Positions 8,777 through 60,880 of a DNA stretch of 64,000 bases are shown one piece after another. The position numbers and the translations under genes are program-made. The stretch lies in NCBI GenBank assembly GCA_048499675.1, contig JASNZL010000009.1, forward strand, positions 303-64,302. The letters are read 5' to 3'. The notes under the pieces are model-generated. The model searched no databases and was not told the DNA's origin. It saw only the letters and a list, made by a program, of their open reading frames with translations. The DNA is from Candidatus Zambryskiibacteriota bacterium. Lineage in GTDB: Bacteria > Patescibacteriota > Minisyncoccia > Phycocordibacterales > WO2-35-19. How positions within the stretch are numbered: position 1 is the first letter of the stretch; each line of letters opens with the position of its first letter.

Positions 8777-9345
8777 GATACGAAAACTATGCGAAAGTTA
8801 CGAAAAACTACGAAAATTGTTCGGAATCAATTCTGATAATTCTTGTAGGCTTCATAAATTTTTCTCTGAAATTAACCAATAAACCCAGTTTAACTTTAGC
8901 ATGCTGTAAATAATTTTGTATTTGTCTGTAATGATCCTTCAATACGAATCTTGTAGCCTTTAATTCTAATACAATTTTATTATCAATAATAAAATCAATA
9001 ATATTTCCAGTATTTCCAATTGTAACTTCTCTACTATATGGTATGTTTTTTTCTTTAAGTTTTTGCTCAATCATATCCCCATACTGCTTCTCTCTAGCAA
9101 ATTGTCCTAATTCTTTTTTAACTTCAAATAAAACACCATTAATTGTATAGGAGAGTTCTGGATATATAACCTTACTACTATAAACTCTATTTTCTATTTT
9201 TTTACTATTACTTACCATAATGTTTATTTGCCTTTATTTTAATACTCACGGGAATTTTAATTCCTGCACATACACTTTTGGGCCACCATATTGATCTTTT
9301 GAATTTTCGTAACCTTTCGTATCTTTTCGCACGATTTTCGTATCC
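8777..9345. mobile_element. MITE-like element with ~42-bp terminal inverted repeats (aattttcgtaNcttttcgtaNctttcgcaNNNttttcgtat) carrying a GxxExxY gene. It is inserted exactly between the permease stop and the ATPase start.
   Basis: Left end 8779-8822 (reverse complement) and right end 9301-9343 align at about 85% identity. A solo copy of the same sequence occurs at 43035-43135. Confidence 0.5.
8808..9218 (-). CDS. GxxExxY-family protein (TIGR04256-like, PD-(D/E)xK nuclease-like fold)
   Basis: Motifs INGVLFEVKKELGQFAREKQYGD and IVLELKA match the GxxExxY family. 136 aa. Confidence 0.55.
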   Translation of the reverse strand: MVSNSKKIENRVYSSKVIYPELSYTINGVLFEVKKELGQFAREKQYGDMIEQKLKEKNIPYSREVTIGNTGNIIDFIIDNKIVLELKATRFVLKDHYRQIQNYLQHAKVKLGLLVNFREKFMKPTRIIRIDSEQFS

Positions 9346-9349
9346 CGTT

Positions 9350-10645
9350 TTACCTACCAAGTATCGAATCGAGCGTATTTCTCTTGACCACAATCCGCGC
9401 CGGTATATAACCAGCAATAATAGTAGCAAGCATTAACAGAAATACTCTTGTAAATGTCGCCCCTAATTCTGCCACTAATATACCGTCACTAAACGGAAAC
9501 TTTATTGGATTTGCATCAAAATACGGAACAAGAAGTCCGTATAGGAGTAAAAGTCCTACCCCTATACCAACTGTTGCATAAAATAATGATTGAAAAACAT
9601 AAGCAATTTCAATGGCTTGCGAACTTATACCTATACCTTTAAGAATTCCTATAAATTTTTTCCTTGTAATTGCATTTACAAATATAACAATAAATATGGT
9701 AATTGATGCAACCACGAGACCAATAGAACCGACCACATTACCAAGTAGTGCAAAAGTATTTTTAATATCAATTACGAATTTTGGTAAAGCATCTTCTTCT
9801 GTTTGAACTCTGGCTGTTTCTCCAATTCCAGTTTTTAGTAATGAATCTCTTACAAAGACAGGGTCAACCCCAGCATTCAATCTAACTGCCATTTCTGAAA
9901 TATTGTAGTCAGTTATACCTGCCATGTTTCGGAGCATTGAATCAAGCATATAAGCTCTAAAATCAACTTCATCAGCCTTGGTTTGAATTATACCTTTTAC
10001 TGTAAATTCTCTCGTATTTTGTCCGATTGTTATCCTAACTCTTGTTCCAGGTTCTACATTTTCCAAAAATGAAAAACTTGCTGATTCTATCGGTACATAT
10101 TTTTTTAACATACTTGATCCAAGTAAAACATATTCGGTATCGTCTGGATTTAGAAATTCTCCTTCCACAACTTTTGAAGCCAAGTTTGAAGTTTGGTTTT
10201 CAAGTACCGGATTTATCCCAGCTATTGCTCCAGCTACACTGTTTGGTGAATCTGTTAATCTAACTCTCTCTTTGTATCCGGCTTCTACAATTCCAGATTG
10301 TAAATATCTTGGTGAATATGCTCTAACCCACTGCATATTTTTGACTGTTTCTATTATTGTAGGACTATTTTCAATAAAATTCTTTTTTGGAAGTCGTGAT
10401 ATAAAAATCTCTCCAGTTGAATGTTCTCTATAAACTCTAATTGAACCCTCTATAAGACCAACGAGAACTCCTCTCACCACCACAAGATTGAGAAAAGTGA
10501 GCGTCATCACAAATATAATGAGAAACGTAGTTGCTTTACTTGATCTTTTGATTTGGCGAAATGCCAAAAAAAACCCCACCTTAAGTGAAATCAAAAAACG
10601 CTCAAATTTTCTTTTCTGTCGCTCCATAGTTTTATTATAACACAA
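9350..10645 (-). CDS. ABC transporter permease, FtsX/MacB-like
   Basis: N-terminal TM helix, large extracytoplasmic domain, three C-terminal TM helices. Same operon as the ATPase and adaptor. Confidence 0.6.
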   Translation of the reverse strand: MCYNKTMERQKRKFERFLISLKVGFFLAFRQIKRSSKATTFLIIFVMTLTFLNLVVVRGVLVGLIEGSIRVYREHSTGEIFISRLPKKNFIENSPTIIETVKNMQWVRAYSPRYLQSGIVEAGYKERVRLTDSPNSVAGAIAGINPVLENQTSNLASKVVEGEFLNPDDTEYVLLGSSMLKKYVPIESASFSFLENVEPGTRVRITIGQNTREFTVKGIIQTKADEVDFRAYMLDSMLRNMAGITDYNISEMAVRLNAGVDPVFVRDSLLKTGIGETARVQTEEDALPKFVIDIKNTFALLGNVVGSIGLVVASITIFIVIFVNAITRKKFIGILKGIGISSQAIEIAYVFQSLFYATVGIGVGLLLLYGLLVPYFDANPIKFPFSDGILVAELGATFTRVFLLMLATIIAGYIPARIVVKRNTLDSILGR

Positions 10646-10677: not shown

Positions 10678-10760
10678 CCGCAATGCTACCGCATAAGCGT
10701 TGCAGGCGGACCCGCCCGCCATTGCCACACTTCAGGCATTGGCAGGCGGGCGAATAAAAA
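10678..10760. repeat. GC-rich REP-like palindromic element (family 1: cacctgcccgcaatgctaYcgcataMgcgttgcaggcgg)
   Basis: Imperfect GC palindromes in an AT-rich intergenic region. Near-identical unit at 60793-60880. Confidence 0.55.
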
Positions 10761-13433: not shown

Positions 13434-13894
13434 ATACTAACAAGTGCAAAATACTAATTGAACGCCGCAAGGGATGATGTACACATTATATGTTCTATCT
13501 TAGTATCGGTTAAACTACATAATCCTTTGTCAGCTAAGGAAATAAAAAGGTTCTTATCGGTATTCTCAGAAATGATCCCAATCTTACGAATTTCTTTTTT
13601 AGCTAATGTAGAAGAGTTTTTCATATTATATATTATTAAGTTTATTAATAAAAACTAGATGAAATCGCATTTATGCACGAAACGCGAATACACATATTTA
13701 TAATACACGGAGTTATAATATTGTCAATTTTTTGTATAACCACACCCATTTTTACACTCGACTCGTAGTTTAGAAACAAATAACTGGAACAGGAAAGAAC
13801 CTTTAGTGAGGTTAGTTTTTTGAAAGAATAGTGGAATCGTTTGATATTGTAGAACAAAAAATAATTTACCATCTTTCTTATTAGCATGATTCGC

Positions 13895-13985
13895 CCGCCT
13901 GCAACGCCTGGAGCGTAGCACTGGCGGGCAGGCCCGCCTGCCAGCGCCTGAAGCGTAGCACTGGCGGGCAGGCCCGCATTAGCGG
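13895..13985. repeat. GC-rich REP-like element, two tandem ~43-bp units (family 2: gcccgcctgc-N-agcgtagcactggcgggcagg)
   Basis: Direct tandem duplication of a GC palindrome in an AT-rich intergenic region. Confidence 0.55.
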
Positions 13986-23040: not shown

Positions 23041-23455
23041 CAATAAATTTTGTCGTATTAGTTTTATTGGTTGTATTAGTTTTATTGGTCGTATTAGTTT
23101 TATTGATCGTATTAGTCCTATTGGTCGCATCCTTCTTATCCTTCTTATCCGTCCCTAGTCCCATTCGTCCAATTTTCCCTCCCCGCCCCATTCGACCTAT
23201 TCGTCCTATCTGTCTTAATTGGTCCTATCAGTCCCGTCTCCTCTTTTCTCCACTTTTTTCTTTCCTTTTTCGATTCGTCCTATCTGTCCTATTCGTCCTA
23301 TCTGTCTTATTGGTCCTATTTTCCTCCCCACCCCATTCGTCCTATCTGTCCAATTTTCCCTCCCCGCCCCATTCGACCTATTCGACCTATTCGTCCTATC
23401 TGTCTTATTAGTCCTATTTACTTTTTAAAAACCTGCTCCACCCATTACTTCGTAT
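23041..23455. repeat. degenerate 9-bp tandem repeat array 1 (YNGTCCTAT on the + strand). It begins with 4x an 18-bp unit (cgtattagttttattggt) and contains conserved internal blocks.
   Basis: Directly visible periodicity. Fills the whole intergenic gap upstream of lepA. Confidence 0.8.
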
Positions 23456-27299: not shown

Positions 27300-27850
27300 T
27301 TTTTTAAAACGCAAAACTCACTTCCCTAGTTCCATTATCCAATCTTCCTTCTACTTTTTTCTTCTTTTTTCCCTATCCAACTTATTTTCCTTCCCCTTCC
27401 GTCAAATTCGACCTGTCTTATTTCCCTCCTCCGCCTTATTCGTCCTATTAGTCCTATCCGTCCTATTAGTCCCATCCGTCCGATTCCCTCTCTCTTTTTC
27501 TTTCCTTTTTCGATTCGTCCCATCCGTCCCATCCGTCCTATCTGTCTTATTTCCCTCCTCTGCCTTATTTGTCCTATCCGTCCTATTCGACCTATAAGTC
27601 CTATTTGTCCTATTAGTCCTATTTCCCTCCCCGCCCTATCAGTCCTATTCGACTTATCCGTCCGATTCCCTCTCTCTTTTTCTTTCCCTTTTTAATTTGT
27701 CCCACCGTCCTATTAGTCCTATCCGTCCTATCCGTCCTATCTGTCTTTTTTGTCCTATTTCCCTCCTCTGCCTTATTTGTCCTATCCGTCCTATTCGTCC
27801 TATCCGTCCTATCCGACCTATTGGTCCTATTTCCCTCCGCTTTCTTCGTC
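27300..27850. repeat. 9-bp tandem repeat array 3
   Basis: Longest array. Several copies of the conserved blocks. Its 3' part overlaps the acidic C-terminus of the 27827..28489 gene. Confidence 0.8.
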
Positions 27851-28539: not shown

Positions 28540-28960
28540 TGTAATTCTAATTTTATTTTTAATTCGTCCCATCCGTCCTATCCGTCCTATTCATTTTTTA
28601 TTTGCCCTATCCGACCTATAAGTCCTATTTCCCTCCTCTGCCTTATTTGTCCTATCCGTCCTATTCGACTTATCCGTCCTATCAGTCCTATTCGACTTAT
28701 CCGTCCGATTCCCTCTCTCTTTTTCTTTCCTTTTTCGATTCGTCCTATCCGTCCTATTAGTCCTATCCGTCCTATTTCCCTCCTCTGCCTTATTTGCCCT
28801 ATCCGTCCTATTCGACTTATCCGTCCAATTCTCTCTCTTTTTCTTTCCCTTTTTAATTTGTCCTATCTGTCCAATTTTTTTATTTACCCTATCCAACCTA
28901 TAAGTCCTATCTGTCTTATTTGCTCCATCCGACTTATTGGTCCTATCAGTCCTATTTCCC
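28540..28960. repeat. 9-bp tandem repeat array 4
   Basis: Same units and blocks. Preceded by an AATTCTAATTTT AT-rich repeat at 28495-28560. Confidence 0.8.
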
Positions 28961-31744: not shown

Positions 31745-32230
31745 CAACTCTCCCCTTTTATTTTATCTTGCCCCAATTCGTCCTATTTGTTTATCCACCC
31801 CATCTTCCTTTTTCCTTATCTGTCCTATTTGTCCTATGAGCCCCATCCGTCCTATTTCCCCTCTCTTTCCTCATCGGTCTTATACGTCCTATTTCCCTTC
31901 TCTGCCTTATTCGTCCTATTAGTCTTATTGGTACTATTTCCCTCCCCGCCCGCCATTCGTCCTATAAGTCCTATTTCCTCTCTCTTTTTCTTTCCCTTTT
32001 TAATTTGTCCTATCCGTCCGATTAGTCTTATTAGTCCTATTCGTCCTATTCGACCTATCGGTCCTATTTCCCTTTTATACGTCCTATTTGTCCTATCCGT
32101 CCGATTAGTCTTATTAGTCCTATTCGTCCTATTCGACCTATCGGTCCCATTTCCCTTTTATACGTCCTATTTGTCCTATCCGTCCAATAAGTCCTATTTC
32201 CCGCCCCCCTTCCTTCCTCTTACAACAAAC
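31745..32230. repeat. 9-bp tandem repeat array 5
   Basis: Contains an internal ~90-bp duplication (32030-32110 and 32111-32190). Confidence 0.8.
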
Positions 32231-37799: not shown

Positions 37800-37985
37800 T
37801 TCTTTTTTTAATTGACCCTTTCTGACTTATACGTCCTACTTGGTCTTATTCGTCTTATTGGTCCTATTTGACCTATCCGACTTATTCGACCCATCGGACC
37901 CATTCGTCTTATTGGTCCTATTTGACCTATCCGACTTATTCGACCCATCGGACCCATTCGTCCTATCGGTCCTATGGATTTTCTG
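37800..37985. repeat. 9-bp tandem repeat array 7, including 2x a 54-bp unit
   Basis: tcgtcttattggtcctatttgacctatccgacttattcgacccatcggacccat appears twice. Confidence 0.75.
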
Positions 37986-42939: not shown

Positions 42940-44679
42940 CTATTGACTCTTATCTCTAAACTCTTGCTCCTCAACTATTGACTGTTGACTCTCAACTGTT
43001 GACTCTTCATTCGTGTCGAGTTTAGTGTCATTTGAAAAATTTTCGTAGCTTTTCGTATCTTTCGCCCGCCTGCGAGCGCCTGCAGTCGCAGACAATGGCG
43101 GGCAGGCATAATTTTCGTATCGTTTCTTTTTCTTAAACAACAGCAACCAAAATTTTCTAAACAACCAAATCAAGAGTAGAACAAAAAGTATGAACCAGAA
43201 GTATTCAGACAAAATAATTAGAAACCCTGTTATTTTGTCAGCCAAAACAAAATTGTTTGATAGAGCAAGTGATGCAACAAGATTCCCGTCTATTTTTTTT
43301 AGTCCTTGATTTTTGTGATCGAGAATAGATATATGCATTCCGTAATTTCCAGATCTGCCAAGTGGAGCAATCACCGCCTCATAACCATTTTTTTCTTTGT
43401 TTATCCTCAAAAGGAAAGAGAATACTTTTGATGGATCTATCGGGTCGTAGAGTGTGATACTAATTGTTTTTAAAACTTCAGGAACTTTTTCGTAAGGCAG
43501 TCTGACTGTAAATGGTTTATCGCCAATAAGAGAAACTGTGTTTTTTTCAAATGGAAGTATTTTTCCTTCTTGAATAAATTCAAAATCTAACAAAGACAAC
43601 TCTTCTATCATTTGATCTACAATCGGGGATTTTGGGAGGAAGTCATATATATAAGGAGTGTGATCTACTATTTCCCCCGGTAGCGCTATGCGAGCATGAG
43701 CAATCGCTCCAGACGCATAATTTCCATTTTTATCTACCGCAAAAATTGTATAGAAATACAATTTTCCTTTTTCTACATCTCTATCAACATAAGATTCGCC
43801 TAATCCTCTATAAATTTCTTTTCCATCTAATATGTCCTTCGGGTAAAAAATGTCTGAACGGATTATCCTCACTTCTCTTAGATCTTTATCTGGTGGATTG
43901 TTCCAAGACAAATCTATCGACGAATCATTTTGTATTGCAACAAAATTTATTGGGTTTGAAGGTGGAGTAAAGTCAGGCAATGATTTTGTTTGGAATGTGG
44001 TTTCGGCAACCACCTGTCTACCAAAAGCATCTACTGATTGTATCTTTATATAGTATGAGGTATCACTCTCAAGATCTGAGATTTTTATATTGTGTGCCGG
44101 AATATATAATTTGCTTTGTATAGAACCCAACTCATAGTCTTTTGTTTTTCCCCAGAAAACCGTTCCCAAAGTAGCCCTGTTTGTTATCCAATTAATGACT
44201 GCAGAATCTGGCTGTGTAGCAATGTTTATATTGATAAAAATCAAAGAACTTCCACCGGGAGGCCCGACTACAGGTTTTGGAGTTGTAACAAGGACCGAAT
44301 CAGAAAGAGGCGATTCATTTGTTGCATTATCTACGGTAGACACTCTATATTCATATAAAGTATCTGCTTGTAAGTCAGTGTCGTAGAAAAATAAATCTGG
44401 AGTAGTTCCTATAAACACACCGTCTCTATATATCTTGTAATGAAGAATTCCAGCCGAAGCTGTCCCAGCATCCCAAGAAAGGTTGATTTGGCTCGTCGAT
44501 ACTGCTGTAGCGACGAGGTTGGTCGGGGCAGTTGGTGGTATACCATCTGTCACTGTTACACTCACCTCAAAAGTGCTCTCAGAAGCATAGACGTTTTTTA
44601 CACCAGAAAATGAACCAAACAAAAGAACGAGACAAACGTAGGCTGATATTATTTTTTTACTTTTTGAATTTAATTTCAT
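42940..44679 (-). CDS. membrane-anchored surface protein with fibronectin type III domains. Its C-terminal tail is encoded partly by an inserted REP/TIR sequence.
   Basis: Signal peptide. FN3 motifs (PTAPTNLVA...INLSWDA...YEYRVSTVDNATNES). C-terminal TM helix and KKKKR stop-transfer. The tail codons ACPPLSATAGARRRAKDTKSYENF derive from the GC palindrome at 43065-43112. Confidence 0.55.
   Translation of the reverse strand: MKLNSKSKKIISAYVCLVLLFGSFSGVKNVYASESTFEVSVTVTDGIPPTAPTNLVATAVSTSQINLSWDAGTASAGILHYKIYRDGVFIGTTPDLFFYDTDLQADTLYEYRVSTVDNATNESPLSDSVLVTTPKPVVGPPGGSSLIFININIATQPDSAVINWITNRATLGTVFWGKTKDYELGSIQSKLYIPAHNIKISDLESDTSYYIKIQSVDAFGRQVVAETTFQTKSLPDFTPPSNPINFVAIQNDSSIDLSWNNPPDKDLREVRIIRSDIFYPKDILDGKEIYRGLGESYVDRDVEKGKLYFYTIFAVDKNGNYASGAIAHARIALPGEIVDHTPYIYDFLPKSPIVDQMIEELSLLDFEFIQEGKILPFEKNTVSLIGDKPFTVRLPYEKVPEVLKTISITLYDPIDPSKVFSFLLRINKEKNGYEAVIAPLGRSGNYGMHISILDHKNQGLKKIDGNLVASLALSNNFVLADKITGFLIILSEYFWFILFVLLLIWLFRKFWLLLFKKKKRYENYACPPLSATAGARRRAKDTKSYENFSNDTKLDTNEESTVESQQSIVEEQEFRDKSQ
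43035..43135. repeat. solo copy of the MITE terminal repeat (ttttcgtaNcttttcgtatctttcgc...attttcgtatc) split by a family-2 GC-rich REP palindrome (43065-43112)
   Basis: Aligns with the right inverted repeat at 9301-9343. The 3-nt 'acg' is replaced by a 46-nt palindrome gcccgcctgcgagcgcctgcagtcgcagacaatggcgggcaggc. Confidence 0.5.
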
Positions 44680-49094: not shown

Positions 49095-49675
49095 TTTTTC
49101 TCTGATTTAAAAATTAAAAACATATCATATATGATATGTTTTTAATTTTTAAAATATAGATTTTTCAAATTTTACAGATTCTGTAGGAATACTATAACAC
49201 TACATTATAGACGAGTTAAACAAAACTTACTTTTAATCAATTCTTCTTTGTCCACCATATTCAAATTACAACACTAGGCTAGTAGTATAAACTCACCAAA
49301 AAAACCGCATATCAAAATTATATAATTCTTATGAATTTTCATTGATACAGATTTACATCTTTGAGTAATTTTTAATACCAAATACAAATACCATCAAATA
49401 TTACTGGCATTTATAAACAAGGCATACCGCTCAACTATCTTTTGTATTTTGTATCTAGTTCTACTATAAAATTTATTCATACCCCCTATTTAGTATATGC
49501 TTAAATGTACCCAAAAAGTCAATTTTAAATTTAAACACACATAAAAAAGTTTTGTGTTTTGATCATAGACAAGAAATGTACTTTTCTAATGACCTCAATT
49601 GACTATTTTTACAAAAAATCACGATCATTTTATTATCTTTTTTGACAATAAATTTCATAACTATGTAATAAAAAT

Positions 49676-60792: not shown

Positions 60793-60880
60793 TCCACCTG
60801 CCCGCAATGCTATCGCATACGCGTTGCAGGCGGGCCTGCCCGCAATGCTATCGCATACGCGTTGCAGGCGGGCGAATTCA
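60793..60880. repeat. GC-rich REP-like element, two tandem 43-bp units (family 1)
   Basis: cctgcccgcaatgctatcgcatacgcgttgcaggcgggc x2, about 95% identical to 10678-10720. Confidence 0.6.

Follow-up and report, generated by a model that had tools for sequence, protein, structure and literature searches.

An inverted-repeat-bounded cassette in a transporter operon

We examined a 64,000-nt stretch of contig JASNZL010000009.1 from a Candidatus Zambryskiibacteriota bacterium (the window, below) and in it the segment at 8777-9344, which carries a gene for a GxxExxY protein between two inverted repeats, here called arms. The segment lies inside an ABC transporter operon on the minus strand. Upstream is an FtsX-type ABC permease gene (9350..10627; PF02687), whose likely start is the ATG at 10627 (homologues have 425 aa). 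Immediately downstream is a LolD/MacB-like ABC transporter ATPase gene (8078..8776; PF00005 and TIGR02211), its ATG abutting one arm, and the third host-operon gene encodes a HlyD/MacA-type periplasmic adaptor (6568..8043; TIGR01730, 1.5e-41). All three genes and the GxxExxY gene are on the same strand. The ATPase and HlyD genes are separated by an ordinary 34-nt spacer (8044-8077), and the permease stop codon and the ATPase ATG by 573 nt (8777-9349) filled by the cassette. An earlier note made from this sequence had given the gap as 577 bp; its placement of a discrete, inverted-repeat-bounded insertion exactly between the permease and ATPase genes was correct.

The downstream (right) arm occupies 8777..8818 on the minus strand and reads AATTTTCGTAGTTTTTCGTAACTTTCGCATAGTTTTCGTATC on the gene strand. 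The upstream (left) arm, inverted with respect to it, occupies 9302..9344 on the plus strand, where it reads AATTTTCGTAACCTTTCGTATCTTTTCGCACGATTTTCGTATC. Comparison of 8777-8818 with the reverse complement of 9302-9344 gave 35 matches in 43 positions with one gap, or ∼81% identity rather than the ∼85% reported before. That inverted repeats bound the gap was borne out by the arm-against-arm local alignment, which scored 44; the best of 5000 shuffles reached 27, and arm pairs from 642 equally spaced real-sequence controls in the same window scored at most 25. Both arms were also recovered with nhmmer (E=2.7e-13 over 8775-8821 for the downstream arm and E=4.5e-11 for the upstream arm) using a profile of the repeat family built independently from metagenome copies. 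The arms are arrays of four TTTCG(T/C)A heptamers apiece, one more than the three sub-repeats counted previously, at a spacing of 9-11 nt, about one helical turn. The downstream arm overlaps the stop codon of the GxxExxY gene (8808-8810; inside the first sub-repeat) and ends directly at the ATPase ATG (8776), while 5 nt lie between the outer end of the upstream arm and the stop codon of the permease gene. An internal spacer (9219..9301, minus strand) with a small palindrome, GGAATTTTAATTCC, at 9251-9264 leads from the upstream arm to the start of the GxxExxY gene. [quoted passage not shown]

The GxxExxY protein

The gene between the arms (8808..9218, minus strand) encodes a 136-aa protein of the minimal PD-(D/E)xK nuclease fold, as the earlier note had proposed. 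It matches TIGR04256 with 71.8 bits (cut-off, 35; 5.7e-20) over profile positions 1-115 of 116 and PF13366 (PDDEXK_3) with 74.5 bits (cut-off, 22; 1.1e-20). In an alignment of 40 homologues, D75, E85, and K87 were invariant. An AlphaFold model (pLDDT 86) has an aabbbabb core, so that the protein combines an intact catalytic motif with a confidently predicted minimal nuclease fold. An exact-sequence lookup of the 136-aa protein returned no record.

The best fold and profile matches, together with the conserved D...ExK motif, liken the protein to minimal Cas4/RecB-like PD-(D/E)xK nucleases. These matches, however, are weak and confined to the core: the fold matches were Cas4, homing-endonuclease, Hjc, and EndA-like proteins, 3r3p among them, with SSO0001 at E=1e-2, and unlike Cas4/RecB-like enzymes the GxxExxY protein has neither an Fe-S cysteine cluster nor a CRISPR context. 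We considered a role in defense and rejected it; PADLOC returned only a weak similarity to the Cas4 core (Cas4b, E=4e-4). The only literature statement that we found on this large family (PF13366/TIGR04256) lists it as "Unknown, multiple transfers" (PMC3424549). With the cassette, the family acquires a concrete role in the genome: it supplies the constant gene of a discrete unit that is bounded by inverted repeats and has recently been mobile.

Site polymorphism and recent movement as a block

We compared the permease|ATPase site of the window with the corresponding sites in relatives, designated here by locus numbers, whose permeases are 67-96% identical to the window copy. Locus L037, with a permease 94-96% identical, carries the same GxxExxY cassette. 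In L153 (93%), the site holds a 211-nt remnant that has no gene, with arms of other types and a GC hairpin; in L154 (81%), it holds a PF05635 (23S_rRNA_IVP/Avd-like) gene between inverted TGGAAAA/TGTAAAA arrays. Operons that lack the insert, whose existence the earlier note had made a check on its claim, were found in L155 and L156 (77%), where the site is empty and 24 nt separate stop codon and ATG. L157 from Zambryskibacteria (67%) again carries a GxxExxY cassette with TACGAAA arms, and so do L110 and L090 at the same site.

L037 comes from an independent assembly, and the comparison with it is the one pair that documents a recent transfer, which it does very clearly. Between the window and L037, nucleotide identity was 83.5% at the 3′ end of the permease gene, 78% in the ATPase gene, and 72% in the HlyD gene, and 40% (permease) and 46% (ATPase) of the codons for the same amino acid differed. 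The GxxExxY gene, in contrast, was 98.8% identical with zero synonymous changes, the internal spacer and upstream arm were 95% identical, and the downstream arm was 97% identical. The cassette thus had 12 mismatches in 573 nt (∼98% identity) compared with ∼6-7 per 30 nt outside it, a drop in divergence from ∼20-25% to 2%. Identity switched at 8768/8769 and 9355/9356, within 8-11 nt of the outer arm ends. Because the cassette is nearly identical and its flanks are diverged, it must have been inserted or exchanged as one block, internal spacer included, after the host lineages had diverged. The inverted-repeat-bounded segment moved long after host divergence, with no co-conversion of the flanks, and a mobile, inverted-repeat-bounded cassette in this operon is established.

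GxxExxY copies at the permease|ATPase site of other lineages were only 70-73% identical to the window's gene, and copies elsewhere, in a type IV secretion-like operon and at scpAB, were 78-80% identical to it. From these sequence identities, the permease|ATPase site has probably been colonized more than once. The variants of this one site (empty, remnant, PF05635, and GxxExxY) form a natural experiment on selfish DNA in tightly packed operons, concerning operon invasion without polarity in Shine-Dalgarno-independent bacteria, and the arm DNA and the empty site are clear substrates for a biochemical test.

The same architecture in relatives

Homologues of the GxxExxY protein with 60-96% identity were abundant in Parcubacteria (Nomurabacteria, Campbellbacteria, Zambryskibacteria, and Paceibacterota). 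We searched the contigs of these homologues with the nhmmer repeat profile and found both arms in all 11 distinct Parcubacteria GxxExxY loci, answering in the affirmative whether other GxxExxY genes are flanked by the same arms, as the earlier note had supposed. In all 11, the downstream arm overlaps the last codons of the gene (...IDSxQFS*) and ends 0-9 nt before the next ATG, and the inverted upstream arm starts 0-7 nt past the stop codon of the previous gene. The distance from the upstream arm to the GxxExxY start is 12-555 nt in these loci, and the corresponding spacer spans 6-555 nt in elements other than the window's. It sometimes encloses an extra gene: L038 has one for a 94-aa membrane protein, L048 one for a 168-aa protein, and L050/L071 one for an HD-domain protein. 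GxxExxY is co-oriented with its neighbors in nearly all loci.

The elements occupy several sites. Besides the FtsX permease/ABC ATPase site (the window, L037, L157, L110, and L090), they were found between an ABC-2 permease and an ATPase gene (L058 and L061, with variant heptamers TACGAAT/TACAAAT), between dnaN(-HD) and a gene for an 85-aa protein (L050, L055, and L109), in a type IV secretion-like operon (L038 and L113), and between scpA and scpB (L048). Arm type varies by cassette lineage among TACGAAA, TACGAAT/TACAAAT, ATGAAT, and TGGAAAA. Even on the single contig of L038, TACGAAA arms surround GxxExxY and ATGAAT arms surround a PF05635 gene. A search of phage GenBank records gave no match.

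The genes that follow the elements share a feature at some sites. In three of five insertion contexts, the next gene starts with I-E-[VI]-K (DNA ATTGAARTAAAA): at 8776 in the window and in L157, L090, L110, L050, L055, L109, L058, and L061. Its carriers include the 85-aa protein, which is apparently not an ABC ATPase. The motif may be the target of site-specific insertion or a coincidence.

Genes for PF05635 proteins (23S_rRNA_IVP/Avd-like four-helix bundles) are likewise bracketed by inverted arrays of phased short sub-repeats. The cassette in L038 (2159-2600) has ATGAAT[TA] sub-repeats. That in L154 (4279-4727) has TGGAAAA/TGTAAAA and stands at the permease|ATPase site, where the window has its GxxExxY cassette. 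Identity between the two PF05635 proteins is only 27.5%, and their arm types differ.

A dispersed repeat family

Both arms are copies of a dispersed 42-bp repeat, a family of which we found no published account. Scanning metagenomes with a pattern that covers heptamers 2-4, we obtained 90 copies of the unit, of which 71 were nonredundant and only ∼8 were arms of GxxExxY elements. The first heptamer was conserved, although it lies outside the scan pattern. Inverted doublets with the same geometry and without cargo, ∼100-116 bp long with arms 8-27 nt apart, were present in L064/L123, L108, L131, and L151; these cargo-less doublets are the truly MITE-like forms.

Most units occur singly, in either orientation, and take up an entire intergenic spacer: the GTATC end leaves 0-2 nt to the gene boundary on its side, and the AATT end leaves 0-12 nt. 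Between co-oriented genes, 21 singlets were reverse and 17 forward. Forward singlets stop shortly before the ATG of such genes as typA and, at a distance of 0-7 nt, rpmG, rpsI, rpsO, rplC, dnaJ, topA, recR, map, aspS, and scpB; reverse singlets start just past a stop codon, as at rpsH|rplF in four genomes. Singlet orientation is thus independent of transcription, which rules out a purely promoter or RNA-signal explanation. We also rejected a promoter as the general role of the unit from this random orientation and from a scan for the sigma-70 consensus, which did no better than shuffles. Singlets and full elements can share a position: at scpA|scpB, L103 has a singlet where L048 has the full element. 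In L110, a reverse singlet (2553-2598) fills the ATPase|HlyD spacer, which has none in the window, and sites that hold singlets in other genomes are empty in the window.

The window itself contains three family members, the two arms and a solo copy on the plus strand at 43035..43122 (43035-43065 and 43106-43122; nhmmer E=5.6e-07 and 0.0055). The solo unit is split by a 40-nt GC-rich hairpin (43066-43105) and lies in the 3′ end of an open reading frame (ORF) at 42940-44679 on the minus strand. This ORF encodes a 579-aa cell-surface protein in which KKKK follows a C-terminal membrane anchor. It reads through the solo unit and the hairpin, gaining ∼60 aa of extra tail that resembles the in-frame insertion of Rickettsia palindromic elements.

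The hairpin represents a second repeat family in this AT-rich genome, ∼40-nt GC-rich hairpins with the consensus GCCCGCCTGCAACGCCTGAAGCGTAGCACTGGCGGGCAG, found in the window at 10700-10760, 13893-13977, 43066-43105, and 60797-60873 (one of them tandemly duplicated). Similar hairpins occur in the spacers of the L153 and L157 elements. In L137 (469-1106), two type-A arms at rpsJ|rplC enclose 545 nt of GC-rich DNA with no convincing ORF but with a T-loop-like GGTTCGATCC and a fold z-score of -2.1. This cargo had no Rfam match, and ARAGORN found no tRNA or transfer-messenger RNA (tmRNA) in it; it may be a structured RNA of a new type.

A first scan of a genome collection with TTTTCGTANNYTTTCGTAWCTTT was set aside: it returned mostly unrelated TTTTCGTATC tandem repeats and promoter-like sites of Bacteroidetes, and the only two relevant matches were both in one Patescibacteria metagenome-assembled genome. 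In the open-access literature searched for GxxExxY, PDDEXK_3, TIGR04256, PF13366, PF05635, and Patescibacteria MITEs, we found no description of the architecture. The family places dispersed repeats, with copies inside ribosomal-protein and replication operons, in genomes of the Candidate Phyla Radiation (CPR), which are usually deemed streamlined and repeat-poor.

Tolerance of the cassette in the operon

Only 4 of the 48 genes in the window have a Shine-Dalgarno-like site; the start regions are for the most part just AT-rich. A TATAAT box 6-9 nt ahead of the ATG in several genes suggests that their mRNAs are leaderless or have very short leaders. Because the organism hardly uses Shine-Dalgarno sites, an AT-rich arm abutting a start codon destroys nothing, and because the cassette lies on the operon strand, it can be expressed by read-through. 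The operon would then survive the insertion for three reasons: the cassette is read through, translation does not rely on Shine-Dalgarno sites, and the right arm that ends at the next ATG is AT-rich. The earlier note's claim that such an element can sit inside an operon without disrupting it agrees with the operon-strand orientation and the scarcity of Shine-Dalgarno-like sites. A forward-oriented arm also puts a CATAAT box 9 nt before the ATG, resembling the TATAAT-N6-9-ATG arrangement of several window genes, and an outward promoter in such an arm is plausible from its sequence.

One pair of genes in the window differs from the rest in its start regions. Tandem paralogues on the minus strand at 1824-2990 and 3181-4356, encoding signal-peptide proteins of 388 and 391 aa, have near-identical upstream regions with a strong GGAGG.

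Proposed mechanism and its alternatives

We read 8777-9344, with moderate confidence, as a copy of a small, selfish, Parcubacteria-specific mobile cassette with inverted arms of 42-44 bp, for which nuclease-driven movement is the best explanation. Underneath this reading are the dispersed repeat family, the presence and absence of the cassette at one site, its recent movement as a block, and the intact catalytic motif of its protein. In the mechanism that we propose, the GxxExxY protein would bind the phased heptamers as a multimer, probably along one helix face, and cut at or near the arm ends (near their GATAC ends). Cutting would mobilize or maintain the cassette that encodes the protein and, in trans, also the doublets and singlets that have no gene. 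Host repair would complete integration, with no target duplication. In the operon, the cassette takes the place of the entire 24-nt spacer from permease stop codon to ATPase start codon, on the operon strand. That GxxExxY itself binds, cuts, and mobilizes the cassette and the gene-less arms in this way is an analogy with REP-associated tyrosine transposases (RAYTs) and the doublets of repetitive extragenic palindromic (REP) sequences known as REPINs, and we put its chances at about even.

Three observations speak for mobilization by the nuclease. In every gene-bearing type-A element, the gene has a constant position and is fused to the arm; arm type differs from one cassette lineage to another, even inside the contig of L038; and the combination of singlets, doublets, and a flanked gene matches that of REP/REPIN/RAYT systems (PMC3116915 and PMC3337134).

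Several findings weigh on the other side. Target-site duplications, proposed in the earlier note as a check, were absent from the junction pairs of all 15 elements and doublets inspected. Neither the profile search of the window nor the gene tables of the fetched loci contained a recognizable transposase or integrase domain, and we know of no 130-aa nuclease that carries out strand transfer alone. Some elements hold passenger genes or noncoding cargo. The presence of PF05635, which is not a nuclease, in analogous cassettes favors mobilization in trans or host recombination. Several diverged genomes share singlets at orthologous sites (rpsH|rplF and upstream of rpmG and rplC), and the recurring units are 80-96% identical compared with 63-80% for flanking coding DNA, a comparison biased by ascertainment since loci were picked by exact pattern; such recurring, well-conserved singlets hint at host function or homogenization. 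Finally, distant GxxExxY genes (30-35% identity) on viral contigs had no significant flanking inverted repeats, and for a Treponema plasmid copy, the sole find of a plasmid search, the flanking repeat was marginal (14 of 300 shuffles were as good). Outside the Parcubacteria clade, GxxExxY genes do not generally come with the inverted-repeat architecture.

The earlier note had called the segment a MITE-like element with GxxExxY as the cargo of a nonautonomous transposon. Its terminal inverted repeats and the cargo-less doublets of the family agree with the first description; the lack of target-site duplication, the gene that it carries, and the predominance of single, REP-like arms do not. As to the second, the cassette is a discrete mobile unit, but no transposase of a known family accompanies it and nothing shows the gene to be passive, so that both "nonautonomous cargo" and "transposon" in the strict sense are unproven.

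Passive cargo is nevertheless the alternative that survives best, although we think it rather unlikely. Here, the arms would be the ends of a nonautonomous element whose enzyme is encoded elsewhere, and GxxExxY, PF05635, and the extra genes would be passengers, which may give some other benefit or cause addiction. This would accommodate the unrelated PF05635 genes in their inverted-repeat-array cassettes, including the one at the same permease|ATPase site, as well as the extra passengers (the 94-aa membrane protein, the 168-aa protein, and the HD protein), the 545-nt noncoding cargo of L137, the distant GxxExxY genes without inverted repeats, and the fact that a bare nuclease is no known transposase. 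However, no candidate transposase was seen in the window or at any locus, and gene carriers with type-A arms all hold GxxExxY, at a fixed position where its final codons run into the arm. In L038, where the arms around GxxExxY and PF05635 differ, one enzyme acting in trans would need to recognize both kinds, and passivity does not sit well with catalytic residues that are invariant.

We judge it improbable that the cassette is a domesticated host element. The 42-bp unit would then be a functional chromosomal site, such as one where nucleoid or regulatory proteins bind in an array, or a promoter or leader directed outward, with CATAAT 9 nt ahead of the ATG. Its cognate DNA-binding factor would be GxxExxY, retained beside its own sites, and mobility would be incidental. 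Helical phasing of the heptamers suits protein binding, forward singlets stand 0-7 nt before the ATG of housekeeping genes (rpmG through scpB), and the TATAAT boxes of several window genes lie similarly close to theirs. A promoter or leader role is not general, however, given the 21 reverse and 17 forward singlets. The recurrence of units at orthologous sites in three to five diverged genomes, conserved above the flanking coding DNA, also points toward domestication, but the conservation figure is inflated by the choice of loci, and orthologous sites are often empty. Moreover, the 64-kb window has only three copies, and the transfer of the block between the window and L037 is selfish mobility.

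An RNA-level intervening sequence, in which the arms would pair in the operon transcript and RNase III would cut the stem and excise the GxxExxY message from the transporter mRNA, as it does with insertions of this kind in 23S rRNA, is very improbable: the minus-strand transcript 9355-8770 is predicted to fold with a ∼42-bp arm stem in both the minimum-energy and centroid structures (z=-3.3), and PF05635, the classical rRNA intervening-sequence protein, occurs in the same type of cassette, but arms are no more complementary to their own partners than to those of other elements (0.766 vs. 0.758; permutation p=0.33) and show no pairing covariation, so that arm pairing is not the selected feature, and moreover, most family members are single arms unable to form a stem and the conserved positions are the heptamers rather than paired columns. 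An Rfam scan of the window found only a tRNA and nothing at the cassette.

Beyond mobilization by the nuclease at this locus, we raise a broader and more tentative possibility: that GxxExxY is the enzyme of an unrecognized class of minimal mobile elements. Such an element, ∼0.5 kb long with a single 130-aa PD-(D/E)xK nuclease that recognizes phased heptamer arrays, would insert from stop to start codon without target duplication and seed REP-like singlets and MITE-like doublets across reduced CPR genomes, including their ribosomal-protein operons. Avd-like PF05635 genes unconnected with diversity-generating retroelements would ride in sister cassettes. If true, two large families of unknown function would gain their first function, and an analogue of REP/RAYT systems built on a different catalytic fold would come to light.

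Comparison with known systems

By analogy, the cassette works most like REP/REPIN sequences with their RAYTs, known together as REPtrons (PMC3116915 and PMC3337134). In both, a small nuclease-type gene stands between two copies of a short repeat in opposite orientation, and further copies are scattered through intergenic DNA as inverted doublets and, more often, singlets, some of them at orthologous sites. The cassette nonetheless lacks two defining features of these systems, the HUH/Y1 transposase and the palindromic unit. RAYTs are HUH/Y1 tyrosine transposases acting on hairpin-forming palindromic REPs, whereas the cassette encodes a PD-(D/E)xK fold with no Y1 match, and its unit comprises four phased direct heptamers without self-complementarity. 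Also unlike REP/RAYT systems, the cassette's gene copy has itself moved horizontally in recent times and occupies different sites in different genomes.

MITEs and the Correia elements of Neisseria (PMC2649163 and PMC10969869) are similarly small, have terminal inverted repeats, and are inserted between and cotranscribed with genes; their ends can supply boxes that resemble promoters, and in mRNA the inverted repeats form stems of the RNase III type. Typical MITEs and Correia elements, however, have a target-site duplication (TA for Correia) and no ORF, while here there is no duplication, a gene is carried, and singlets outnumber doublets. We did not find a parent insertion sequence with the same ends and a known transposase; only GxxExxY lies consistently between these ends.

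Free-standing homing endonuclease genes, such as the seg and mob genes of phage T4 with their intronless homing, are another class of nuclease genes, and PD-(D/E)xK types exist (I-Ssp6803I and I-Bth0305I). The cassette resembles them in having a small nuclease gene lodged between conserved genes, one that some relatives carry at that site and others lack, that recurs there in diverged lineages, and that is far younger than its flanks. Homing, however, leaves tracts of flank co-conversion, and here identity collapses just outside the arms; nor do homing endonuclease genes have long bounding inverted repeats or dispersed solo repeats. The 23S rRNA intervening sequences of Leptospira and Coxiella, which encode PF05635 proteins, are also bounded by inverted repeats, contain one small ORF, and are tolerated inside an essential transcript, and the PF05635 gene of L154 at the same operon site adds to the likeness. 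The cassettes differ from them in lying in protein-coding operons and in showing no arm-to-arm covariation. The cassette is a small prokaryotic mobile repeat element that is a member of none of the families compared.

Other repeats in the window

Long arrays with a 9-nt period lie at 23052-23418, 27437-27831, 28644-28957, 32003-32198, and 37828-37975 of the window. They read TATTCGTCC on the plus strand and GGACGAATA or Gly-X-Y on the minus strand, indicating collagen-like repeats in several large surface-protein genes. At 49099-49160 is a 62-nt near-perfect palindrome with 31-nt arms that are 90% complementary and abut without a spacer.

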